Source of the DNA: Reclinomonas americana ATCC 50394
Taxonomy: Eukaryota
Length of the DNA stretch: 42,535 nucleotides
Direction: 5' to 3'
Assembly (NCBI GenBank): GCA_048213135.1
Contig: PS015452.1
Span: 2,336-44,870 of the forward strand
The position numbers and the translations under genes were made by a program. Positions 1 to 18,858 of the stretch are shown piece by piece. The notes below the pieces were generated by a model that had not been told where the DNA came from, did not search any database, and saw only the letters and a list, made by a program, of their open reading frames with translations. How positions within the stretch are numbered: the first letter of the stretch is position 1; the number at the start of each line of letters is the position of its first letter.

Positions 1-2
1 GC

Positions 3-1022
3 AGCACTGGAAGATTCAAATGGACCCCCTGGACTTTTAGACACGTTTTTGCAAGAATGCTGCACCTCGTCACCGGCTCACCCTACTTGAGCGCAACTTT
101 GGTAATATGTTGCGAAGGCACCATTGGACGCACCTGGAAAGTTTCAGGTCAAGGGTGTCCGAGTGCCGACCTGTGCGAGCAAATCACCACCAAACACAAC
201 CACGTAACACCGGGAATTTTTTTACCGTTTCACATCTCCCGAGTTATCGGCGGGTCTTGGTGGCGCTTGCCTGCCATCACTATGCTCGCCAGGATGTAGC
301 GCACATGGTGATATGTCGCAATGCAAACGGCTGTGTGTGTGGCACGCGAGGAATTTTGCACACTCTCAACGGCTCTGCGCACCGTTTCCGCCGTTTTTGC
401 AGAGAAGAGAGAGAAATCATGCCGGAAGAAGGCAGCGACCGCTGCCGACGCAGCTGGTACCAGCACCGACAGCAGCAGTAGCGACGAGCAACCCCGCGGC
501 CGGCGCAAATCGCCCGCCGCGAGGAAGAAGGTGGCTGCCGCCGCGCGCTCTCGTCAGCGGCAAGGCGAGGCAACAGAGGCAAGTTCGAGCTCCAGCAGCG
601 ATGGCAACGCAGCCGACACCGAGATCGGGGAGGGTGGAGACGATTCGGACGACAGCAACTCGAGCGATGAATCGGAATCTTCTGACTCGAGCTCGGACGC
701 GAATGGGCGTGGCCGGCGGCGACAGCTGGTGTACGACGACGACGTTGCTCTCAGTGCTGATGAGGAGGCGAAGCGGCAAAAGCGCCAGAAGGAGCGCATG
801 GCCAACGTCTTGTCCAGCAGGGCCGCAAGAGCTCAGAAGTCCAAGGAGGAGGCGGACAGAATGTTGGCTGCAAGCGTGGCGCGCAAGGCAGCCAGAAGAG
901 CGGCGAGGCGGCCAGCAACAACGGAGCTTGATGCAGCGCCAGCGGCTGCTTCGTCGCGACCGAGCTCGAGCTGGTTCGCGAAAGCGATGGAGAGCGAAGA
1001 CGAAGAGGAAGATGAAATGTGA
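3..1022 (+). CDS. 3' part of a spliced gene (5'-truncated by window edge); possible tyrosine-recombinase C-terminus plus Ser/Asp/Glu- and Lys/Arg-rich tail
   Basis: Frame 3 is open from base 3 and reads STGRFKWTPWTFRHVFARMLHLVTGSPYLSATL (3-101), resembling the YR box-II 'PHxxRHxFAxxL..G' helix (H replaced by W). Terminal exon starts after ttttgcAG (403) and runs to TGA 1020-1022 as an acidic/basic low-complexity tail (NLS-like RGRRK, KRQKR). Internal exon structure at 102-402 is ambiguous. Confidence 0.4.
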
Positions 1023-1550
1023 CAAAATAAAGAACACCGCCGGCGTGGCACATGTTGCAGCGTGTTTCACTCAGCATGCACACAGCTTCTCGGTTGCGGT
1101 CAGTGCTCTTAGAGAGTCGCGGATACCACGCCGGAGAGCTTGTCACAGAGCGCTCACCATCGTCACACCACCGCACCTCGTTCACGCCGCCCTCGTCCCT
1201 GCGCTGCGGCTCGACGGCTGTGAGGAGGCGCCAGCTTGTGTGACAGGAAGAGACACAAAAAACAGCGGAGGAGAAGCACACTGGTGGATCAATAGCCCAT
1301 ATAGGCGTGAGTAATGTGAAGCGCGCGTAGTGGGACGAGAGAGCGAGTGCAAACGTGACACGTAATTTTCCGACTGAGTGACCGAATGCTCAGAAATTCG
1401 TCGTTCGGCTGGTCAAATCAGTCGACGCAGTTCTCGTCAACGGCGCAATCACCAACTTGGCGGAGCAGTGCTACCTGCTCACTGATGGTCACGCTACACT
1501 ACCACCGCAAAAAAAATGAACTCGGCCGGCGATCAGAGCCTGAAACATCA

Positions 1551-2706
1551 ATGGACCCTTTTTTTGTACGGAACGAATGAAATCATTGACGATTTCGCAC
1601 AAACTTGGCAAGGGGNNNNNNNNNNNNNNNNNNNNNNNNNNNNNNNNNNNNNNNNNNNNNNNNNNNNNNNNNNNNNNNNNNNNNNNNNNNNNNNNNNNNN
1701 NNNNNNNNNNNNNNNNNNNNNNNNNNNNNNNNNNNNNNNNNNNNNNNNNNNNNNNNNNNNNNNNNNNNNNNNNNNNNNNNNNNNNNNNNNNNNNNNNNNN
1801 NNNNNNNNNNNNNNNNNNNNNNNNNNNNNNNNNNNNNNNNNNNNNNNNNNNNNNNNNNNNNNNNNNNNNNNNNNNNNNNNNNNNNNNNNNNNNNNNNNNN
1901 NNNNNNNNNNNNNNNNNNNNNNNNNNNNNNNNNNNNNNNNNNNNNNNNNNNNNNNNNNNNNNNNNNNNNNNNNNNNNNNNNNNNNNNNNNNNNNNNNNNN
2001 NNNNNNNNNNNNNNNNNNNNNNNNNNNNNNNNNNNNNNNNNNNNNNNNNNNNNNNNNNNNNNNNNNNNNNNNNNNNNNNNNNNNNNNNNNNNNNNNNNNN
2101 NNNNNNNNNNNNNNNNNNNNNNNNNNNNNNNNNNNNNNNNNNNNNNNNNNNNNNNNNNNNNNNNNNNNNNNNNNNNNNNNNNNNNNNNNNNNNNNNNNNN
2201 NNNNNNNNNNNNNNNNNNNNNNNNNNNNNNNNNNNNNNNNNNNNNNNNNNNNNNNNNNNNNNNNNNNNNNNNNNNNNNNNNNNNNNNNNNNNNNNNNNNN
2301 NNNNNNNNNNNNNNNNNNNNNNNNNNNNNNNNNNNNNNNNNNNNNNTTCACCCATCATAACTTGTCGTCACGTGCTCCGTTGGCACCAAACTGCGAGTCA
2401 TTTTGTAGGGGATTGTCTCACGTCTTCTATGGACCCCTTTTGCAGGACTGAATCAGTCCGCCTCGGCTGTTCACTGCGCCACTCCGAACGGACCCCAAAA
2501 ACAGGCGAAATCAGTCCAAAATCTGGCTTGTGGTCCGAACTTTCACTGCGCAAGATCTTGCGACTGAGAAATCCCTGCGATCCACTGAAGGTGCCCCCGT
2601 GTGGAGTGTATGGCGCAGATCCCATTGGACCCCTTTTGTACCCCCTGAAAATCAACCGTTCCGTTTCTATACGTGAAGCGAAAAAATTTCGTCCAAAAAG
2701 GGGTCC
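1551..2706. repeat. Dispersed motif GGACCC(C)TTTT(T..)G: three direct copies and one inverted copy
   Basis: atggaccctttttttgtac 1551-1569; atggaccccttttgca 2429-2444; ttggaccccttttgtac 2625-2641; inverted caaaaaggggtcc 2694-2706. The region is non-coding-looking. Confidence 0.55.
1616..2346. other. Assembly gap (N run)
   Basis: Run of n. Confidence 1.
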
Positions 2707-3637
2707 GGACATATGACCTGTGCTGCGGCACATTGACCCTGGGGGGGCACGCAGTCAGAACAAGGCTCGCCAGAGGCCACGGTACCCCAATTAAATAATG
2801 AGAAAGAGTGCAGTACCCCACGAGGATGAAATTTCGGTTCAACGCGCGCACAGAGAGTGAGAGACCGAGAGGAGAGTGTGTGTGTGGTGTTCTTCCATCT
2901 CTCCTCCGATCCCCAAGCTCACCTTTCACCTGCAGGGTATCGGAACGCGGCAGAAACACGAACGTTTACAGAAGGAGATGCACAAATGTGGTGAGTATAC
3001 GTATTATACCAGTTTCTCGAGCACAGCCCAAAAACGACAACGCAACTATTTTTCCTGTTGATCGGAGAGAGAGAGAGAGGCAACGTAGGTGAGTGTCATG
3101 TGCGCAAGGTATCGAATCAAATACTGATGTGAAAACTCGGTACGCACATAAAGTCTGGAGACACTCCTTGGTGAGAAACCGCAACAGGATGCAGGTAGCC
3201 ACGCGCAGTGCACAGCCATGAACTTACACCGTCAGTGCGATGGTTGCCGCAGCAAAACGCAGTAGCGGACTCGGCACTACGCGGAGAAGCATTAGCAGGT
3301 GCACACACATGCACAACATGGACATTGATCCGCATGTCACTCACCCAAGTGCCGAACAGCCGCTGCCGCTGCGTCACCAACGAACACCGACTTGGTGCTG
3401 CTAATTACCACCCGATAGTGCCGCCCCGCTCAGATGAGCAGAGAGACGCCGACCGGGACAGCAGTGCCTCATGAACAGACTAAAGAACAAGCAAAAGAAG
3501 ACCACCTGGTCACCACACTCAAAAAAAACACACATAATCGCCGGTGGAGCCACGGGGCTGCAGGACTCGCGTCGCACTTGCTGCAGGGAATATGAATCAG
3601 GAGAGCAAGAGCATGTACGGAAAGAGTCCAAGGCAGT

Positions 3638-3790
3638 CAAACACACAAACGCAAACAAGCAAACAAGCAAACAACCAAAAATCTAATGATCACAACAGCA
3701 AAACAGACGAAACACACAACAAACAACAAACAAATAACAAACTAAACAAGCTAATTAAGACAAGAATAACAAGAAAACCCAATAAAAATC
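3638..3790. repeat. A/C-rich low-complexity tract (AAAC/AAC-like)
   Basis: aaacacacaaacgcaaacaagcaaacaagcaaacaaccaaaa...aaacaacaaacaaataacaaactaaacaag. Confidence 0.8.
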
Positions 3791-4392
3791 AGGAGAAATT
3801 GTAGAAACGTGTCGCGATAAGCTGCGTGCACTTGCCGACTCGCCCATGCCGGCAACCGACACACGTCCGCAATGCAAGTGCGTGCATTCCACGACAGCCC
3901 TCCGTGAAGGACGACGAGCGTAACGCCTCGCAGTGACAGACATGCCGCGACGGACAAACGACGAGCGCACCCTAAGAGTGAGCAAATCGAATGAGACGCA
4001 CGCGCGCAGTGAAACCACACATGCTGTGGTGTTATCTCGTTTCTCTCTCCTCTCTCACACACACAGAAACACACCTCAGCACTCAGTCGTCGTCGAGTCA
4101 GTGATGTGCATGCACCAACAACAACTCATGCCGGTCCATCTGAAGCAAGCGACCGACTGCGACGGAAACGGAGACACACACCACTGTGATCTGGACAAAG
4201 ACACTCATGATCAGCGAAAAATGACAGTACAGATATCGATGATGAATGCACAAAACATGTCTCACCTGCAGCACACCGCGGTACCGCAACCGAGCGGTGA
4301 CGTCCACGCAGTGAGGCACGACATGTGCAATGTAACCAGCTGCTGGCCGCCTGCACCGTGGCTACGTCGCCCATCCTCTTCGCGCGCGCATC

Positions 4393-5210
4393 CTACTCAC
4401 GCGCGTCTTCGCTTGTCTTTTGGTTCTCCGTCATCCGCGGCCGTGCCGCGAAGACGCTTGCTACCGCAGGTGCTGCCGGTGGCGGTGGCGGTGGTGCTGC
4501 TGCTGCTGACACCGCAGGTGCTGCCGGTGCTGCTGCTGCTGCTGCTGCTGCTGCGAGCGCTGCTTGCACTCCTGCCGGTGGCGGTGGCGGTGGTGGGCGC
4601 CGAGCTGCTGCCGCTGCTGCTGCTGCTGCTGCTGCTGCTGCGAGCGCTGCTTGCACTCCTGCCGGTGGCGGTGGCGGTGGCGGTGGCCGAGCTGCTGCCG
4701 CTGCTACTGCTGCCGCAACAAGCACACCTGCCGATGGCGGTGGTGGTGGCCTGCGAACCGCGGAAGCAGTGGGACACAATTGCAACGGAACACGTCAACC
4801 ACAACAACCAGTCTCCGACCAATCACTCACCCAGCTGCGCCGGCTGACAGCCACGCTTCAAAACGTGACCGGAATTCTAACAAGACGAGCTGCGCTGTTT
4901 CTAATGCCGTACGTAGCGGTGGTGCCGACGGAGGCGGTGGTGGTGGTGGTGGGCCGGCGCCGCCACCTGACGGCGGCACAACTCCAACATTTAGACAGGC
5001 AATGGTTGTCACAGAACTGGGGTCCCGAGAGACTTCCTTGCCGCCCAGGGGGCATTGCGGGTTCTGACACGTCATCTCCGTATCTGGTCCTGGCGGTGGA
5101 TCATAAGCCCAACCGCATCTGCACAGGCGAGTCGAGTTTCTCTCTGACGGACGCGGATTGTTGATAGCGTGCAAGCCGATGAGATCGCGTCGTCCATTGA
5201 CTTTCTCCAC
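4393..5210 (-). CDS. 3' exons of a spliced gene with TnpB/Fanzor-like C4 zinc finger and RuvC-III-like RD motif, followed by a Pro/Ala-rich tail
   Basis: Exon 5210-4831 (acceptor ttttgtcgcgcAG; donor GG|GTGAGT) reads VEKVNGRRDLIGLHAINNPRPSERNSTRLCRCGWAYDPPPGPDTEMTCQNPQCPLGGKEVSRDPSSVTTIACLNV... It splices in phase 2 to exon 4750-4393 (GPPPPPSAGVL...EDARE*; a possible further donor GTGAGT lies just before the stop). The 5' part is lost in gap 5295-6013. Confidence 0.5.
4466..4705. repeat. Internal tandem duplication (~87-bp unit) of GCT/GGT-GGC triplet blocks encoding poly-Ala/poly-Pro
   Basis: (gct)n-gcgagcgctgcttgcactcctgccggtggcggtggcggtgg occurs twice (~4530-4594 and ~4612-4686); caccgcaggtgctgccggtg is also repeated. 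Confidence 0.85.
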
Positions 5211-5294
5211 CTGCGCGACAAAATGAAAACGAGGGAATGGTTGGACAATAATAATCCGACGTTTCACGCACACACACATACACAGCGACGAAGA

Positions 5295-6013
5295 NNNNNN
5301 NNNNNNNNNNNNNNNNNNNNNNNNNNNNNNNNNNNNNNNNNNNNNNNNNNNNNNNNNNNNNNNNNNNNNNNNNNNNNNNNNNNNNNNNNNNNNNNNNNNN
5401 NNNNNNNNNNNNNNNNNNNNNNNNNNNNNNNNNNNNNNNNNNNNNNNNNNNNNNNNNNNNNNNNNNNNNNNNNNNNNNNNNNNNNNNNNNNNNNNNNNNN
5501 NNNNNNNNNNNNNNNNNNNNNNNNNNNNNNNNNNNNNNNNNNNNNNNNNNNNNNNNNNNNNNNNNNNNNNNNNNNNNNNNNNNNNNNNNNNNNNNNNNNN
5601 NNNNNNNNNNNNNNNNNNNNNNNNNNNNNNNNNNNNNNNNNNNNNNNNNNNNNNNNNNNNNNNNNNNNNNNNNNNNNNNNNNNNNNNNNNNNNNNNNNNN
5701 NNNNNNNNNNNNNNNNNNNNNNNNNNNNNNNNNNNNNNNNNNNNNNNNNNNNNNNNNNNNNNNNNNNNNNNNNNNNNNNNNNNNNNNNNNNNNNNNNNNN
5801 NNNNNNNNNNNNNNNNNNNNNNNNNNNNNNNNNNNNNNNNNNNNNNNNNNNNNNNNNNNNNNNNNNNNNNNNNNNNNNNNNNNNNNNNNNNNNNNNNNNN
5901 NNNNNNNNNNNNNNNNNNNNNNNNNNNNNNNNNNNNNNNNNNNNNNNNNNNNNNNNNNNNNNNNNNNNNNNNNNNNNNNNNNNNNNNNNNNNNNNNNNNN
6001 NNNNNNNNNNNNN
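5295..6013. other. Assembly gap separating the cadherin-like array from the zinc-finger exon
   Basis: Run of n. Confidence 1.
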
Positions 6014-9000
6014 CCAGAGATGTTGAACATGGCCGCATTCGCTCCACCAACAATCGAGTACGTGAATGTCTGCGCCGAGTTGCCGTCTGTGGTGGACAGA
6101 GTGCCCACCACGACATTGGCAGTGGTCGGCGGCGTGTACATCGTCGACGACAGTGCAATGTCCGACGGAGGGACGTTGGCTGCGGACCATTCGCAACAAT
6201 TAACCAGTTGCCGAACGCAACAACAGCTCAATCAAACTATCTTGCTCCGCACCTTCATCAATGACAAGCGTCTTGTCAAAGAACAGCGACCCGCTACCAC
6301 TATCGGTGGTGCGCACAATAACCACCAGTCCATTGCCCGTCTGCCCAGCCGCAGTGATGCGCAGCTGGTCGCCAGAGATGTTGAACACGGCAGCATTCGC
6401 TCCGCCCACAATTGAGTACGTGTACGTCTGGCATGAATTGGCATCAGTCGTCGACAGCCTGCCAACAACCATATTAGATGTGGACGGCGGCGTGTATGCC
6501 GCGATCGATATTGTGATGTCCGTGGGTACGACATTGGCTGCAATTGCAAGTATCGACGATGAGTGGGCAAGCACATGCGCACAACATAGATCTGCAAGCA
6601 CACACCTTCGTTAATCGTGAAGGTCTTGTCAAAGAACAGCGATCCACTGCCGCTGTCCGTCGATCGCACAATCACAACCAAGCCAGTTCCATTCTGCCCG
6701 CCGGTTGTGATGCGCAGCTGGGCGCCAGAGATGTTGAACATGGCAGCATTTGCTCCGCCCACAATCGTGTATGTGTACGTTTGGCACGAGTTGGCGTCCA
6801 CGGTGGAAAGCGAACCGACGGCCACATTGGCCGTGGTCGGCGGCAAGTACGTCACAGACGAAAGCACAACGTCCGTCGGCACAACATTCACTGTACAGGA
6901 GACGTGCGTGAGACACACGACGAGCAAAATCACCGGTGAATTGCCTGCAACAACACACCTTCGTTGACTGTGAATGTCTTGTCAAAGAACAGCGATCCAC
7001 TGCCACTGTCCGTCGATCGCACAGTCACCACCAAGCCAGTTCCATTCTGACCCGCAGTTGTGATGCGCAGCTGGGCACCAGAGATGTTGAACATGGCCGC
7101 ATTCGCTCCACCCACAATCGTGTACGTGAACGTCTGCGCCGAGTTGGCATCGGTCGTCGACAGGCTACCAATCACAAGATTGGCGGTGGTCGGCGGTGTA
7201 TATGTCGTCGCCGTCAGTGAAATGTCCGTCGGTGCAACATTCACTGCAATGCGCCGCATAAGGACCGGTCAGCAGAGAAAAACAGAACACAAAACATACC
7301 TTCGTTGATCGTGAATGTCTTGTCAAAGAACAATGATCCGATGCCGTTATCCGTCGATCGCACAATCACCACCAAGCCGGTTCCGTTCTGCCCAGCAGTT
7401 GTGATGCGCAGCTGCGCGCCAGAGATGTTGAACATGGCCGCGTTCGCTCCGCCCACAATCGTGTACGTGAACGTCTGCGCCGAGTTGGCATCGGTCGTTG
7501 ACAGGCTACCAATCACAAGATTGGCGGTGGTCGGCGGCGTGTACGTCGTCGACGACAGTGCAATATCCGACGGAGGGACATTGGCTGTGCGTCATTCGCA
7601 ACGCTTCATAAGTCGCCAAACGCAACAACAACTCAATCAAAACTCTCTCGCTCGTACCTTCGTCAATGATAAGCGTCTTGTCAAAGAACAGCGACCCACT
7701 GCCACTGTCGGTGGTGCGGACAATAACCACCAGTCCACTGCCCGTCTGCCCAGCCGCAGTGATGCGCAGCTGGTCGCCAGAGATATTGAACACAGCAGCA
7801 TTCGCTCCGCCCACAATCGAGTACGTGTATGTCTGGCACGAGTTCGCATCCACTGTCGATAGCACACCAACAACCATATTTGCGGTGGCCGGCAACGCGT
7901 ACTGTGTTGCCGACAACGTGATATCCGTGGGCGTGACATTGGCTGTAATGATAGTCGATGAGTGACCACGCCGATGAATCAAATCTCCCTCTCATACGCA
8001 TTCTCTCTCCACTGCACACAAATAGCAAGAATCGCAGCACAAACCCTCGTTGACCGTGAATGTCTTGTCAAAGAACAGCGATCCACTGCCACTGTCAGTT
8101 GATCGCACAATCACCACCAAGCCAGTTCCATTCTGCCCGGCCGTNNNNNNNNNNNNNNNNNNNNNNNNNNNNNNNNNNNNNNNNNNNNNNNNNNNNNNNN
8201 NNNNNNNNNNNNNNNNNNNNNNNNNNNNNNNNNNNNNNNNNNNNNNNNNNNNNNNNNNNNNNNNNNNNNNNNNNNNNNNNNNNNNNNNNNNNNNNNNNNN
8301 NNNNNNNNNNNNNNNNNNNNNNNNNNNNNNNNNNNNNNNNNNNNNNNNNNNNNNNNNNNNNNNNNNNNNNNNNNNNNNNNNNNNNNNNNNNNNNNNNNNN
8401 NNNNNNNNNNNNNNNNNNNNNNNNNNNNNNNNNNNNNNNNNNNNNNNNNNNNNNNNNNNNNNNNNNNNNNNNNNNNNNNNNNNNNNNNNNNNNNNNNNNN
8501 NNNNNNNNNNNNNNNNNNNNNNNNNNNNNNNNNNNNNNNNNNNNNNNNNNNNNNNNNNNNNNNNNNNNNNNNNNNNNNNNNNNNNNNNNNNNNNNNNNNN
8601 NNNNNNNNNNNNNNNNNNNNNNNNNNNNNNNNNNNNNNNNNNNNNNNNNNNNNNNNNNNNNNNNNNNNNNNNNNNNNNNNNNNNNNNNNNNNNNNNNGGT
8701 GATGCGCAGCTGGGTGCCAGAGATGTTGAACATGGCCGCATTCGCTCCGCCAACAATCGTGTATGTGTACGTCTGACACGAGTTGGCGTCCGCCGTTGAT
8801 AGATCTCCCACAACAAGGTTGGCTGCCGTCGGCGGAAGATATGTCGCAGCCGATAGCACAACATCTGTTGGTGCAACGTTGACTGGTGCAAGGAAACAGG
8901 CGTCGCGGTGAGGAGCAGCAACGAGAAAAGAAATCACACCGATGACAACAGACCTTCGTTGATCGTAAATGACTTGTCGAAGAATAGAGGCGATGCGCCG

Positions 9001-12000
9001 TTATCCGTCGATCGCACAATCACCACCAAGCCAGTTCCGTTCTGTCCAGCTGCTGTGATGCGTAGCTGCGCGCCAGAGATGTTAAACATGGCCGCATTCG
9101 CTCCGCCCACAATCGTGTATGTGAATGTCTGCGCCGAGTTGGCATCGGTCGTTGACAGGCTACCAATCACGAGATTGGCGGCGGTCGGTGGCGTGTACGT
9201 CGTCGCTGACAGTGCAATGTCCGTCGGAGCAACATTCGCTGAACGAGAAAAAAAGGAGTGAGAAATCACAGATGAGAGCACGCAGCTCCGAGATAATACG
9301 AACCCTCGTTGATCGTAAATGTCTTGTCGAAGAACAGAGGCGATGCACCATTATCTGTCGATCGCACAATTACAAGCAGACCGGTTCCATTCTGTCCAGC
9401 CGTCGTGATGCGCAGCTGAGCGCCAGAGATGTTGAACATGGCCGCATTCGCTCCACCCACAATCGTGTATGTAAACGTCTGAGCCGAATTGGCATCGGTC
9501 GTTGACAGAGTGCCCACCACGACATTGGCGGTGGTCGGAGGCGTGTACGTCGTCGCCGACAGAGCAATATCCGACGGCGAAACATTTCCTACAATGCAGA
9601 AATATCGATTACGGCGTAATCATACAAAAAACTAAAAAGAGTAATCAAACACACCTTCGTTAATCGTGAAGGTCTTGTCAAAGAACAGCGATCCACTGCC
9701 GCTGTCCGTCGATCGCACAATCACAACCAAGCCAGTTCCATTCTGCCCGGCGGTTGTGATGCGCAGCTGAGCGCCAGAGATGTTGAACATGGCTGCATTC
9801 GTTCCACCCACAATCGTGTACGTGTACGTTTGGCACGAATTGGCGTCCACGGTGGAAAGCGAACCGACGATGACGTTGGCCGTGGTCGGCGGCAAGTACG
9901 TCACAGACGAAATCGCAATGTCCGTCGGCGCAACATTCACTACAAGAGAATGTGTTATCATTAGAGAAGCATACACGCGAGTACCAAAACAAGCAACTGA
10001 CCTTCGTTGATCGTGAATGTCTTCTCGAAGTACAGTGATCCACTGCCGCTGTCGGTCGTCCGCACAATCACCACCAAGCCAATTCCATTTTGTCCGGCTG
10101 CCGTAATGCGCAGCTGGGCACCCGAGATGTTGAACGTGGCCGCATTCGCTCCCCCCACAATCGAGTACGTGAATGTCTGCGCCGAGTTGGCATCCGTCGT
10201 CGACAGGCTACCAATCACAAGATTGGCGGTGGTCGGCGGTGTATATGTCGTCGCCGTCAGCGCAATGTCCGTCGGTGCGACATTCGCTGCAACGGAACGC
10301 ATAAGATAACCGATCGCCTGTCAGCAGAGACAACAAAACACAAAACATACCTTCGTTGATCGTGAATGTCTTGTCGAAGAACAATGATCCGATGCCGTTA
10401 TCCGTCGATCGCACAATCACCACCAAGCCAGTTCCATTCTGACCGGCTGTCGTGATGCGCAGCTGCGCGCCAGAGATGTTGAACATGGCCGCATTCGCGC
10501 CGCCCACAATTGTGTACNNNNNNNNNNNNNNNNNNNNNNNNNNNNNNNNNNNNNNNNNNNNNNNNNNNNNNNNNNNNNNNNNNNNNNNNNNNNNNNNNNN
10601 NNNNNNNNNNNNNNNNNNNNNNNNNNNNNNNNNNNNNNNNNNNNNNNNNNNNNNNNNNNNNNNNNNNNNNNNNNNNNNNNNNNNNNNNNNNNNNNNNNNN
10701 NNNNNNNNNNNNNNNNNNNNNNNNNNNNNNNNNNNNNNNNNNNNNNNNNNNNNNNNNNNNNNNNNNNNNNNNNNNNNNNNNNNNNNNNNNNNNNNNNNNN
10801 NNNNNNNNNNNNNNNNNNNNNNNNNNNNNNNNNNNNNNNNNNNNNNNNNNNNNNNNNNNNNNNNNNNNNNNNNNNNNNNNNNNNNNNNNNNNNNNNNNNN
10901 NNNNNNNNNNNNNNNNNNNNNNNNNNNNNNNNNNNNNNNNNNNNNNNNNNNNNNNNNNNNNNNNNNNNNNNNNNNNNNNNNNNNNNNNNNNNNNNNNNNN
11001 NNNNNNNNNNNNNGTACTCGATTGTGGGCGGAGCGAATGCTGCCTTGTTCAACATCTCTGGCGACCAGCTGCGCATCACTGCGGCTGGGCAGACGGGCAG
11101 TGGACTGGTGGTTATCGTCCGCACCACCGACAATGGCAGTGGGTCCCTGTTCTTTGACAAGACGCTTATCATTGACGAAGGTACGAGCGAGAGAGTTTTG
11201 ATTGAGTTGTTGTTGCGTTTGGCGACTTATGAAGCGTTGCTAATGACGCACAGCCAATGTCCCTCCGTCGGATATTGCACTGTCGTCGACGACGTACACG
11301 CCGCCGACCACTGCCAATGTCGTGGTGGGCACTCTGTCCACCACAGACGGCAACTCGGCGCAGACATTCACNNNNNNNNNNNNNNNNNNNNNNNNNNNNN
11401 NNNNNNNNNNNNNNNNNNNNNNNNNNNNNNNNNNNNNNNNNNNNNNNNNNNNNNNNNNNNNNNNNNNNNNNNNNNNNNNNNNNNNNNNNNNNNNNNNNNN
11501 NNNNNNNNNNNNNNNNNNNNNNNNNNNNNNNNNNNNNNNNNNNNNNNNNNNNNNNNNNNNNNNNNNNGTGTACGTCTGGCATGAGTTGACATCGGTTGTC
11601 GATAGCACACCAACAACCATATTTGCGGTGGCCGTTAACACGTATTGTGTTGCCGACAACGTGATATCCGTGGGCGTGACATTGGCTGCCAGGATAGTCG
11701 ATGAGTGACCTCTCACACTCATTCTCTCTCTCTCTCTCCATTGCACACAAAACGCAAGAATCGCAGCACAAACCCTCGTTGATCGTGAATGTCTTGTCGA
11801 AGAACAGCGATCCATTGCCATTGTCAGTTGATCGGATGATCACCACCAAGCCAGTTCCATTCTGGCCAGCTGTCGTGATGCGCAGCTGGGTGCCAGAGAT
11901 GTTGAAGAGCGCCGCATTCGCTCCGCCAACAATCGTGTACGTGAATGTTTGACACGAATTGACGTCCGTCGTTGACAGACCTCCTACAACAAGGTTGGCT

Positions 12001-15000
12001 GTCGTCGGCGGGACGTATGTGGCAGCCGATAGCACAACGTCAGTTGGTGCAACGTTGACTGGTCAACATTGAAGAACGAAGCAGTGAGTAAAGAAAGCGA
12101 GAACAACGAGATCCATGACGTCGCAGACCTTCGTTAATCGTGAATGTCTTCTCGAAGAACAGCGATCCACTGCCACTGTCAGTCGTCCGCACAATCACCA
12201 CCAAGCCAGTTCCATTCTGTCCGGCCGTGGTGATGCGCAGCTGTGTGCCAGAGATGTTGAACATCGCCGCATCGGCACCACCCACAATCGTGTACGTGTA
12301 CGTCTGAGCCGAGTTGGCATCGGTTGTCGTCAGACTGCCAATCACGAGATTGGCAGTGGTAGGCGGCGTGTACGTCGTCGCCGACAGNNNNNNNNNNNNN
12401 NNNNNNNTGTCAGTCGGTGCAACATTCACTGATCGATGGAAGAAGGCAAAGGAGTGAGAACATTAGATGGCATGGAGAACTTGCCATATAGGAGGACAGA
12501 CAAACCTTCGTTGATTGTAAATGTCTTGTCGACAAACAGTGATCCACTGCCGTTGTCAGTCGATCGCACAATTACCACCAAGCCAGTTCCATTCTGCCCG
12601 GCCGTGGTGATGCGCAGCTGTGTGCCAGAGATGTTGAACATGGCCGCATTGGCTCCGCCAACAATCGTGTACGTGTACGTCTGAGCCGAGTTGGCATCGG
12701 TCGTGGACAGGTTACCGATCACGAGATTGGTGGTGGTCGGTGGCGTGTACGTCGTCGCTGACAGCGCAATATCCGTCGGTGCAACATTCACTGATCGATG
12801 GAAGAAGGCAAAAGAGTGAGAACATCAGGTGGAATGAAGAACTCGCCATCTGGGAGCACAGACAGACCCTCGTTGATTGTGAATGTTTTGTCGAAGAACA
12901 GAGGTGATGCGCCGCTATCCGTCGATCGCACAATCACAACCAAGCCAGTTCCATTCTGACCGGCTGTCGTGATGCGCAATTGTGCGCCAGAGATGTTGAA
13001 CATTGCCGCATTCGCTCCGCCCACAATCGTGTACGTGAATGTCTGAGCCGAGTTGGCATCGGTTGTCGACAGATTGCCTACCACGAGATTGGCAGTGGTC
13101 GGTGGTGTGTACGTCGTCGCCGACAGTGCAATGTCCGTCGGGGAAACATTGGCTGCGAAAGTACGAGAGAAGATGAGGCCTCTTCGAACGTTGTGACGAT
13201 TAGTGAAGCCACCATGACCGTACCTTCGTCAATGACAAGCGTCTTGTCAAAGAACAGCGACCCGCTGCCATTGTCGGTGGTGCGCACAATAACCACCAGT
13301 CCGCTGCCAGTCTGTCCAGCCGCAGTAATGCGCAGCTGGTCGCCAGAGATGTTGAACAAGGCAGCATTCGCCCCGCCCACAATCGTGTACGTGTACGTCT
13401 GGCACGAGTTGGCATCGGTTGCCGAGAGCGATCCGACGACAATGTTGGCTGTTGACGGTGGTGCATACGTAATCGATGTCAGCGCAATATCCGTCGGCGC
13501 CACATTCACTGCACGATAGAAGAAGGTGACTGGGTGAGAACGGCAGGTAGTGTGTGAAGCAAACGGCGACTGACCTTCGTTGATGGTGAATGTCTTGTCG
13601 AAGAACAATGGTGATGCACCGTTGTCTGTCGATCGCACAATCACGACCAGGCCGGTTCCATTCTGCCCAGCTATCGTGATGCGCAGCTGGGCACCCGAGA
13701 CGTTGAACATGGCCGCATTCGCTCCACCCACAATCGTGTACGTGAACGTCTGCGCCGAGTTGGCATCGGTTGTGGACAGACTGCCAACAATAAGATTGGC
13801 GGTGGTCGGTGGTGTGTACGTCGCGGCTGACAGCGCAATATCCGTCGGCGCAATATTGACTGAACAAAAGAAAACGAGTGAATGAGAAATCACAGATGAG
13901 AACACGCAGCTCCAAGATAATACAAACCTTCGTTGATCGTAAATGTCTTGTCGAAGAACAGCGGTGATGCACCACTGTCCGTCACTCGCACAATCACCAC
14001 CAACCCCGTTCCATTCTGTCCGGCCGTCGTGATGCGCAGTTGCGAGCCAGAGATGTTGAACATGGCCGCATTAGCTCCACCGACAATCGTGTACGTGAAT
14101 GTCTGGGCCGAATTGGCATCAGTCGTCGACAGAGTGCCGATCACGAGATTGGCGGTGGTCGGCGGCGTGTACGTCGTCGCCGACAGTGCAATGTCGGTCG
14201 GTGCAACATTGACTGCACATCATCAAGAGCGGTGTAAGTTTTGTTGACGCAACAGAAACAACAAAGCGTGACACAAATTGCAGTACCTTCGTCAATGACA
14301 AGGGTCTTGTCAAAGAACAGCGATCCGCTGCCACTATCGGTGGTGCGGACGATAACCACCAGTCCATTGCCCGTCTGCCCGGCCGCAGTGATGCGCAGCT
14401 GGTCGCCAGAGATATTGAACAAGGCCGCATTGGCTCCGCCCACAATCGTGTACGTGTACGTTTGACACGAATTGGCATCGGTTGTCGACAGGTTACCAAT
14501 CACGAGATTGACAGTCGTCGGCAGCGTGTACGATGCAGCCGATATTGTGATGTCCGTGGGCGTGACATTGGCTGTAATGATAGTCAATGAGTGACCACGC
14601 CGATGAAGCTCTCACACTCATTCTCTCTATACACTACACGTACAGAGAGAGCAAGAATCGCGTCACACACCTTCGTTGATTGTGAATGTCTTGTCGAAGA
14701 ACAGCGATCCGCTGCCACTGTCAGTGGATCGGACAATCACCACCAGCCCCGTTCCATTCTGCCCGGCTGTCGTGATGCGCAGCTGCGTGCCAGAGATGTT
14801 GAACATGGCCGCATTCGCTCCGCCAACAATCGTGTACGTGTACGTCTGACACGAATTGCCATCCGTGGTTGACAGAGTGCCCACCACGACGTTGGCGGTG
14901 GTCGGCGGCGCATATGTCAACGACGACATTGCAATGTCCGTCGGCGCAAGGTTCACTGTACAGGAGGCCCGTGTGAGACATAGGATGAGTAAAGTCACCT

Positions 15001-17484
15001 GCACATTGCTTGTGGCAACACACCTTCGTTGATTGTGAATGTCTTGTCGAAGAACAGCGACCCACTACCGCTGTCCGTCGATCGCACAATCACTTGATAG
15101 CCATCGCCGAGGACACCCGCTGCTGTGATGCGCAGCTGAGCGCCTGAGATGTTGAACATGGCCGCATTCGCTCCGCCGACAATCGTGTACGTGAACGTCT
15201 GCGCCGAGTTGGCATCCGTCGTCGACAGGCTACCAATCACGAGGTTGGTGGTGGTCGGTGGTGTGTATGTCGTCGCCGTCAGTGCAATGTCCGTCGGCGC
15301 AACATTCACTGAACGATGGAACAAGGCGAATAAGTAATCAACGGCTGGGAGAATGGAGACTTTGCCAGACAAGAACATAAACCTTCGTTGATCGTGAATG
15401 TCTTGTCGAAGAACAGCGATCCTATGCCGCTGTCCGTCGATCGCACAATCACCACCAAGCCAGTTCCATTCTGACCGGCTGTCGTGATGCGCAGCTGAGC
15501 GCCCGAGATGTTGAACATGGCCGCATTCGCTCCGCCCACAATCGTGTAGGTGAATGTCTGTGCCGAGTTGCCGTCTGTTGTGGACAGAGTGCCCACCACG
15601 ACATTGGCAGTGGTCGGCGGCGTGTACGTCGTCGACGACAGTGCAATATTCGTCGGCGGAAGGTTAACTACACGTTCATCGAGAGCGACATATAAGCTAC
15701 CAAAGAAATGGACACGTAGACAAAGTCTAGCACCGCCGCACCTTCGTTAACGACAAGCGTCTTGTCAAAGAACAGTGATCCACTGCCACTGTCAGTCGAG
15801 CGTACAGTCACCACCAGTCCACTGCCGGTCTGCCCGGCCGCGGTGATGCGCAGCTGATCGCCCGAGATGTTGAACAAGGCAGCATTCGCACCCCCCACAA
15901 TCGTGTACGTGTACGTCTGGCACGAATTCACATCCGTTGTCGACAGCGAACCGATGACAACATTGGCTGTTGACGGTGGTGCATATGTTGTTATTGATAT
16001 CAAAATGTCCGTGGGTGCGACATTTGCTGCGATTACAGTTATAAGTTAATAAATTCATACATGAAGAAGGCCAACAAACACGCACCTTCGTTGATGGTAA
16101 ATGTCTTGTCGAAGAACAGAGGTAATGCACCATTATCTGTCGATCGAACAATCACCACCAAGCCGGTTCCATTCTGTCCGGCTGTCGTGATGCGCAGCTG
16201 GGCACCCGAGATGTTGAACATGGCCGCATTAGCTCCGCCAACAATCGTGTACGTGAACGACTGGCCCGAGTTGGCATCGGTTGTGGACAGACTGCCAATC
16301 ACAAGATTGGCTGTCGTCGGAGGCGTGTACGTTGTCGCCGTCAGTGCAACGTCCGTCGGCGCAACATTCACTGCGTATTACAGCAACAGTCAGTGAGACA
16401 CAGAATTACGAGACGCAACTGACTCCGTCAGCCGTACCCTCATCGATGGTAAATGTTTTGTCGAAGACCAGCGATCCACTGCCGTTGTCAGTAGATCGCA
16501 CAATCACCACCAAGCCAGTTCCATTCTGGCCGGCTGTCGTGATCCGCAGCTGCGCGCCAGAGATGTTGAACAAGGCAGCACTAGTGCCGCCCACAATCGT
16601 GTACGTGAACGACTGGCCCAAGTTGGCATCGGTCGTCGACAGCGCACCGACAACCATGTTGGCGGTGGTCGGTGGCGCGTACGTCGTCGCCGACAGTGCA
16701 ATGTCCGTTGGAGAAAAATTGACTGACGTGGCACGGGTCAGACAATGTAACACAGTCCAAGTAGCACACAACCACCTGCCATACCTTCGTCAATGACAAG
16801 CGTCTTGTCGAAGAACAGCGACCCGCTGCCGTTATCCGTCGATCGCACAGTCACCAGTAGTCCACTGCTTGTCTGCCCGGCCGCAGTGATGCGGAGTTGG
16901 TTGCCGAGAATGTTGAACAAAGCAGCATTCGCTCCGCCCACAATCGTGTACGTGTACGTCTGGCACGAGTTGACATCCGTGGTCGACAGCGAACCGACGA
17001 CGAGGTTGGCTGTCGATGGTGGCATGTATGAAGCGATCGAAATCGTGATGTCAGTGGGTGCAACATTGGCTGCACACACAAAGAGGAGAGTTGGAGTGAG
17101 GAGGAGACACGCAGGCGCAATGAAAGTAGGTGTCGGGCAGACCTTCGTCGATCGTGAATGTCTTGTCGAAGAACAGCGACATGTTGCTGTCAAGCGTCGA
17201 ACGTACAATCACCACCAGGCCGGTTCCATTCTGACCGGCTGTGGTGATGCGCAGCTGAGCGCCAGAGATGTTGAACATGGACGCATTCGCTCCCCCCACA
17301 ATCGTGTACGAGAACGATTGACCACCGACGGCACTCGATGACGACAGGGTGCCTATCACGAGATTGGCGGTAGTCGGTGGTGTGTACGTCGTCGCCGATA
17401 GTGCAACATCCGTCGGCGCTGGACTCGCTGCATCGCAATTGATGATAATGAGTGAGGAATGGCATTCACCCCAATCGCGTGTGC

Positions 17485-18422: not shown

Positions 18423-18858
18423 TGGGTGAGTGCCGGCTCGTTGTGTCCGCTGGATTGGTCGTTTCCAATCCGATAAATCGCATGCACGACAGCGAAAATT
18501 GTGGCACGGTCGCATTGCGCGTGGTAAACATCAAACAACAACAACTGCATTCACCAACAATCAGGCACCAGCTGTCTTGATGACAAAGTTCAACCGTATT
18601 GGACACTCGTCTGAATGAGGGGCCAGCTTTGTCACTTGATTGCGTGCGGGAGTTGGGAAACTGATGTGCGTGCAGTGTGATATTGTACGTTCGCTCACAG
18701 AGATCCGATGGCATGTGCACACAGCGTGAGGCGGACGCCGTTTACAGTGCGTTAGTCACGCTGCAAACACCTCGGCAAATCATGTGCCACCCAGTCGCGT
18801 GAAGCAGAGTATATTTTTCCACACGCCATCCTCAATCGGAACCCATCGTGCCATCGCC

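Follow-up and report, generated by a model that had tools for sequence, protein, structure and literature searches.

Introduction

Transposons of the pogo type, among them the DD35D groups (Fot/Fot-like and Passer) and their non-autonomous derivatives, are described in the accessible part of Gao et al. (PMC7386202) as leaving target duplications of TA, TAA or TAAA, and the part of Dupeyron et al. (PMC7325037) open to us gives TA as their shared target. Fanzor nucleases are known, from the sections available of Bao and Jurka 2013 (PMC3627910) and Jiang et al. 2023 (PMC10530073), as passengers with introns that occur in many types of transposon, a Crypton chimera among them, and the latter source derives their RNAs from conserved DNA at the 3′ end of the element. 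Here we describe a 42,535-nt stretch of Reclinomonas americana ATCC 50394 (positions 2336-44870 of contig C444, hereafter the window), the first 5,294 bases of which hold, with good probability, two separately repeated elements 13 bases apart. The first, element A (2-2725), would be a defective cut-and-paste transposon of the pogo type, flanked by a CG that was likely duplicated on insertion; the second, element B (2741 onwards), is represented by its 3′ part, including the two final exons predicted for a likely Fanzor nuclease gene.

The assembly amounts to 108 Mb in 16,441 contigs, for which C-numbers are our working names. Consecutively numbered contigs were taken as neighbours, which we infer from the overlap of C3893 with C3894 and from matching 5-bp flanks across C6953 and C6954. 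The window is intron-rich and, judging from its splice signals, eukaryotic. A gap of 1,197 N lies immediately to the left of base 1, and a second of 719 N (5295-6013) hides the remainder of element B together with the end of a cadherin-like array.

Results

Two elements that recur apart

BLAST located further copies of both ends, each without the other. C15780 is 100% identical to 2349-2727, the right end of A, and carries a different flank and no B; C8964 matches 2741-2890, the end of B, at 97% identity, again with a different flank and no A alongside. Since the end of A is found without B and that of B without A, the two elements move apart. The original prediction had favoured a single composite element coding a tyrosine recombinase (YR) and a Fanzor, which these copies contradict; its alternative of two abutting element ends agrees with what was found against the whole assembly, both ends being repeated separately and with different flanks. 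Independent insertion in a repeat-rich region is the most likely account of why A and B are neighbours. The gene-poor spacer of ~3.3 kb that had been described here does contain repeated motifs (an excess of GGACCC/GGGTCC) and a gap, but its length is about 2.6 kb, the gap is probably near empty and the spacer consists of two element ends. What separates A from B is a unique 13-nt sequence (2728-2740), with which a Fanzor guide would begin if the terminal module of B is an omega RNA.

A CG at every junction of element A with a known flank

Flanking sequence is known at six junctions of element A, and CG is present at all six. Left ends read CG-CAG in all three flanked copies (A-CG-CAG in C323 and C3894, C-CG-CAG in C10402), and right ends read CTG-CG, likewise in three of three (CTG-CG-G in the window and C3893, CTG-CG-C in C15780). 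The window itself starts G-CAG: base 1 is the G of the left target dinucleotide, its C lies in the gap to the left, and the piece of contig before that gap ends in C. Two independent empty sites are available for comparison. In C420, a paralogue of the C323 flank (93%) whose sequence is uninterrupted, an open frame reads GCCA-CG-CTGG at the place where C323 has GCCA-CG-CAGT. The C15780 flank is a tandem repeat whose units, counted together as one observation, have CG at the junction in four of the five examined and AG in one. With dinucleotide frequencies in the window of 9.2% for CG and 1.9% for TA, the chance of two such CG agreements comes, by arithmetic from the CG frequency, to near 0.008. 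Because CG stands at all six junctions and was already there in two independent empty sites, a target duplication of CG is likely. In the empty-site check proposed in the original prediction, no empty allele of the window site was seen; CG was already present at two empty sites of A. On this sequence evidence we judge a pogo-like family with a CG target to be probable. We found no CG target reported for mariner/pogo elements in the open-licence literature; Repbase or the supplements of papers could hold a precedent.

Structure and copies of element A

Element A (2-2725, plus strand) reads as a non-autonomous pogo-type transposon with terminal inverted repeats (TIRs), running from CAG to CTG over about 1,993 assembled bases. 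The left TIR (2-28, plus strand; CAGCAC ... GGACCCC box) takes in the start of the supposed YR motif, and the right TIR (2700-2725, plus strand; GGGGTCC ... GTGCTG) is followed by the right CG at 2726-2727. The first 7 bases of the two ends are identical, both ends have the GGACCCC box, and the boundaries are sharp in the six junctions. A search with the left-end pattern, leaving off the leading bases, gave eight places and none in the control; four of these are the left ends, two belong to a tandem array on C74, one lies on C265 and was rejected as no end, and one is on C313. The C74 array (L185:1-1620) is built of the subterminal unit of A, with a repeat of roughly 190 bp derived from the right subterminal region and facing GGACCCC/GGGGTCC boxes in each unit. 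Right ends were identified by BLAST and not by pattern, and older copies of the right subterminal region without an intact terminus (C33, C14495, C506 and C3776) were excluded from the junction count.

Inside the left TIR, the 5′ subterminal region (3-418, plus strand) is shared with C323 and with two short copies; window 1-425 aligns to C323:54064-54489 at 94% identity, and 1-363 aligns to C3894 and C10402 at 67%. In C323 an unrelated exon immediately precedes the shared stretch, and a transposase frame opens at the ATGCCGG with which that stretch closes. The window keeps this ATGCCGG (419-425, plus strand) and then diverges, apparently at a deletion or replacement breakpoint; element A has lost its transposase beyond the start codon. 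The low-complexity open frame at 312-1022 (plus strand) is single-copy, rich in Ser, Asp, Glu, Lys and Arg and not in phase with the ATG at 419; it may be a C-terminal transposase tail left stranded. Its homology to the tail of the C14 transposase described below was tried and rejected, BLASTP giving no alignment. The 3′ subterminal region (1337-2699, plus strand) contains GGACCC boxes and spans an assembly gap of 731 N (1616-2346). As the sequences at 1615 and 2349 directly adjoin in three relatives, the gap is probably close to empty and A about 1,993 bases long. Positions 1-2727, of which 1,996 bases are assembled, contain six GGACCC/GGGTCC sites; 2,000 Markov resamples averaged 0.72 and reached 5 at most. 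The genome also holds a very abundant short inverted-repeat family with dozens of matches (for example window 18534-18599; also L014, L015 and L026), two copies of which enclose a piece of the right end of A.

A pogo-type transposase related to the C323 frame

Between the transposase frame of C323 and a gene on C14, identity is 42% (E 3e-34). That gene (L060:6570-9055) is apparently a complete, spliced pogo-type transposase gene with CG-CAGTG upstream. One C14 exon matches HTH_Tnp_Tc5 with 32 bits against a cut-off of 22.2; matches to DDE_1 (E 0.0013, on a 48-amino-acid exon) and DDE_3 fall below their cut-offs. The spacing is DD35D, with 35 residues between the second and third Asp across one predicted 56-nt intron. 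A homologue search with the C14 exon gave no outside relatives. Set beside the pogo DD35D groups and their non-autonomous derivatives, as described in the accessible portions of PMC7386202 and PMC7325037, the family is alike in combining HTH_Tnp_Tc5 with a putative DDE_1-like domain and predicted DD35D spacing (in the relative C14), and A is alike in its short TIRs, 2-bp palindromic target and internally deleted copies. A differs in the flanking CG, the imperfect TIRs and the long subterminal regions. Since it does not have the TA, TAA or TAAA target duplication, A may best be regarded as a variant that works like pogo. In such a scheme a DDE enzyme like the one of C323 would mobilise A in trans, binding to the GGACCCC boxes of its two ends and cutting at CAG/CTG; the junctions and empty sites suggest that A was then inserted at CG rather than TA.

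The Fanzor-like gene of element B

The minus-strand Fanzor-like fragment ending at ~4393, described in the original prediction, was confirmed. An exon at 4831-5210 splices in frame (5210-4831 to 4750-4393) to a Pro/Ala-rich tail, the predicted last coding exon (4393-4750), which closes with a stop at 4393-4395; both are on the minus strand. The upstream exon carries a RuvC-II Glu (SERNST), a CxCG...CxxxxC zinc finger and a RuvC-III Asp (SRDPSS), and it has 15 matches in the genome. An alignment of 11 of the exon matches keeps the four Cys, the Glu and the RD motif. The profile of these 11 exons finds mimivirus Fanzor2 ApmFz2 (9b0l) as its best PDB match, aligned over the Glu, the zinc finger and the RD motif, and the Fanzor-like identification is reasonable on that ground even with a weak E-value (0.048); Cas12p ranks fourth. 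Cas12f1-like_TNB is matched by 6 of the 11 exons (best E 0.0045), the window's own exon not being one of them. No outside homologues were found with a Fanzor exon as query; the representative search listed two long, multi-stretch hits. A RuvC-I motif, DPG, lies upstream in the relatives C3794 and C2506 and is not within the window; WED and REC domains were not recognised. In relatives the Fanzor-like gene extends several kilobases further upstream, more than the 719-N gap can hold, so that the copy in the window would be truncated, mis-joined or in a gap larger than stated.

Compared with Fanzor passengers and ApmFz2, as far as the sections available to us describe them, B is alike in the order Glu, zinc finger, RD motif, in its introns, in having the gene upstream of a conserved 3′ end and, as a family, in non-autonomous hosts that bear TIRs. 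It differs in a very divergent protein with long N- and C-terminal extensions, and in 2 kb of spliced non-coding DNA before the end of the element. On C648 (L053:2500-5200) a gene resembling HAP2/GCS1, a gamete-fusion protein (by eye), lies just downstream of a Fanzor-like gene.

Ends of element B and its family

On the minus strand, B ends in a 3′ terminal module of what we call type 1 (2741-2840), which finishes in ...GTGCCCCCC with a sharp boundary after it. This module, a candidate omega RNA or a set of transposase-binding repeats, is common to 13 loci with unrelated flanks: 11 found by pattern (no control matches), the window and C8964. Six of the 13 have a Fanzor-like gene upstream in the same sense, five by profile match (window, C40, C9557, C3793/94 and C5513/14) and the sixth, C7421/20, by 91% DNA identity to the C40 gene; five others are on short contigs. 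Upstream of the module lie conserved non-coding blocks (2908-3657, minus strand) with splice-donor-like sites at 2922 and 3344. They are shared with type-1 and type-2 relatives and recur elsewhere at 70-81% identity; their indels do not preserve a frame, and the donor-like motif at 2922 is conserved.

Many loci that share these blocks end in a second terminus, type 2, which was found at 18 loci. Types 1 and 2 have CAGTCAGAA in common, type 1 having 11 extra bases outside it. Among 13 parsed type-2 right ends the sequence that follows is ACAGT in six, TCAGT in two and a variant in five (one further row of the end listing is a left end and stands outside the 13). Both ends could be located in four type-2 elements: C579 (L026:5077-6485, 1,409 nt), C73 (L127:7434-9677, 2,244 nt), C6953/54 and C111 (101092-127420, 26,329 nt). 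All four have inverted repeats (18-25 of 32 positions identical) and identical 5-bp flanks. The family to which B belongs thus includes, as its type-2 members, transposons with inverted repeats and 5-bp target duplications, from 1.4 to 26 kb in size. C579, C73 and C6953/C6954 are short, non-autonomous members with a strong target preference near ACAGT, and the C111 element has imperfect TIRs, TCAGT on both sides and a giant spliced Fanzor-like gene inside. The RuvC-I motif of that C111 gene seems changed (VVESG, by eye). For Fanzor hosts, the portions of PMC3627910 and PMC10530073 accessible to us list target duplications of 2, 4, 6, 8, 9 and 11-12 bp and of variable length; the type-2 hosts here have CAG ends, 5-bp duplications near ACAGT and sizes up to 26 kb. 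No Fanzor with 5-bp target duplications was found reported in the open-licence literature, and here too Repbase or supplements could hold a precedent. A region resembling the 3′ part of a non-LTR retrotransposon, with zinc knuckle and restriction-like endonuclease motifs (by eye), occurs in several copies, on C365 (L028:6119-7500), C40 and C18.

A candidate guide RNA in the terminal module

In 12 aligned copies of the 100-nt module (C210 was excluded as truncated), a closing 7-bp helix and an inner 5-bp helix are possible, with 98.6% of the alignment cells paired. The consensus helices exist on the Fanzor-sense strand only, where all one-sided changes retain G-U pairs, and 9 of the 12 copies have z <= -1.3 on that strand against mononucleotide shuffles. 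Rfam gave no match for the module beyond two chance ones. Both in the window and in C40, a splice donor and a pyrimidine tract precede the module, and no obvious acceptor comes ahead of the element's end; this suggests that a guide RNA may be intron-borne. The boxes of the module could equally be transposase-binding repeats. By analogy with known Fanzor/TnpB biology, the Fanzor-like protein would be a passenger whose guide is RNA from the 3′ end of the element plus flank, and it may cut empty sites and so favour retention of the element.

Surface-protein genes near Fanzor-like elements

To the right of the 719-N gap the window holds a cadherin-like array with one domain per exon (6014-17420), with paralogues on C8965, C75, C379, C2098-2100 and C4435-4439. 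The contig that follows C8964, C8965, carries such an array in the same orientation as the window and at 85% identity over 4 kb. An FN3-like gene (labelled by eye) is common to C40, C3796 and C5515, about 15-18 kb upstream of their type-1 ends, and their outer flanks differ. These arrangements hint at the cadherin-like array and the FN3-like gene as cargo. Against this, genome searches gave no type-1 end or Fanzor match for the arrays on C75, C379 and others, and the joins are hidden by gaps. A direct cadherin-Fanzor fusion was considered and rejected because the exon phases misfit (phase 1 versus phase 0).

Discussion

The composite element proposed for this locus took as its starting point a resemblance at 3-101 to a tyrosine recombinase. 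The open frame at 3-299 does read ...WTPWTFRHV..., in which the TPWTFRH stretch recalls HxxR, a tyrosine-recombinase motif, and another open frame does end at 1022; these are not one gene, however, for their frames differ, and 312-1022 is not in phase with the ATG at 419. The first frame begins with the first base of element A, its copies share no upstream coding DNA, and a 1-nt insertion breaks it in C323. Compared with C3894, mismatches in the subterminal region fall evenly over the codon positions (43/41/52, p 0.47), and a coding role of 1-418 in any frame was ruled out by this lack of codon bias. None of three plus-strand frames matches a Pfam family, and PF00589 (Phage_integrase) has 13 matches in the genome and none on C444, although genes split into exons could escape such a search. 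(Strong unspliced Phage_integrase matches on C1 and on C2, which exceeds 2 Mb, suggest bacterial DNA in the assembly.) The stretch at 3-101 comes from a pogo-type DDE transposon, being part of its terminal repeat and its 5′ non-coding sequence. Crypton-Fanzor chimeras have been recorded (MCi-2A, in the available part of PMC3627910), but the sole likeness to Crypton and DIRS elements here is a chance resemblance of seven residues; the window has no recombinase, and A has TIRs and a flanking dinucleotide, features absent from YR elements as that part of the source describes them. The missing Phage_integrase domain and the inverted ends with their flanking CG set the locus apart from Crypton/DIRS. 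Together with the copies in which the ends of A and B occur apart, these observations make a single element coding a tyrosine recombinase and a Fanzor extremely improbable.

Other explanations accept two elements and differ in how they insert or function. Blunt insertion of A between C and G, without duplication and with ends GCAG...CTGC, would yield the same sequence as CG duplication. CAG starts are usual among pogo-type elements. The transposase is moreover of the pogo type, a group that makes TA-type duplications (PMC7386202, as far as it was available), and we give blunt insertion little chance. The short distance between the elements could also mean that A was drawn to the end of B, its transposase being tethered by GTACCCC boxes in the B module (at about 2781-2788 and 2814-2821) that are similar to its own GGACCCC boxes. 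The remaining five A junctions have no B end next to them, and contacts of repeat with repeat are common in this genome (C33, C14495 and C579 are examples), which makes such attraction quite unlikely. A far more serious contender concerns B itself: the module may do no more than bind transposase through its repeats, and the Fanzor-like exon may belong to a passenger that has decayed and lacks a guide RNA. The lack of covariation and of an Rfam match, the recurrence of the module boxes in both orientations and a 5′ part too long for the 719-N gap, if as long as in relatives, speak for it. The retained Glu and Asp, the in-frame splicing of the exons, helices confined to the Fanzor-sense strand, G-U pairs kept by one-sided changes and the low z values of most copies speak against it, and we put this account at somewhat below even.

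It should be considered, nevertheless, that several observations weigh against two independently inserted elements, a CG target or a Fanzor with a guide. For element A, 13 bases is a tight distance for pure chance, no single copy has both flanks on one contig, and the empty sites are just two; three other searches with A flanks, that of the window site included, gave none. For C3893, C10402 and C8964 the flanks led to no empty site, relatives diverging before the junction or matches stopping short. The TIRs are imperfect (14/28 ungapped identity), the right-end pattern matched three ends but also three control places, and C323 alone has no Pfam match, its catalytic part falling in a gap. As to B, the window exon on its own drew no match from Pfam, solved structures or the Atlas clusters (none at 0.9 or more), and the window's copy is incomplete as assembled. 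Both copies at the locus are defective or incomplete. At C365 and C210, which carry a type-1 end, no same-sense Fanzor match was found in 38-40 kb; neither a type-1 left end (CCCCCC terminus or matching flank) nor a target duplication was found in the stretches examined; and 30 frames from C111 and C3794 gave no convincing transposase Pfam domain. In the module no base pair changes on both sides, shuffles equal the observed pairing, and the window module folds no better than its shuffles (z -0.25).

With these points weighed, we retain the reading of two separate elements, and would set beside the pogo-like family a family of Fanzor-carrying transposons that adds element context to Fanzor-like genes. 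The fullest form of this picture joins a first CG-targeting pogo family to giant Fanzor transposons with surface-protein gene cargo (the cadherin-like array here, the FN3-like gene in three other copies) and a guide RNA from a terminal intron, with its donor inside the element and its acceptor in flanking host DNA; as a whole we think it rather unlikely.

Transposons of the IS630-Tc1-mariner and pogo groups characteristically target TA. A family with a CG target would, if true, show that target specificity can switch in nature, here in a genome with about five times as much CG as TA. It would also be a direct handle on how such enzymes read their target dinucleotide, which is relevant to transposon vectors. 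For the Fanzor side, ends, target duplications and a guide-RNA candidate are now attached to giant, intron-rich Fanzor-like genes, which makes their activity testable.

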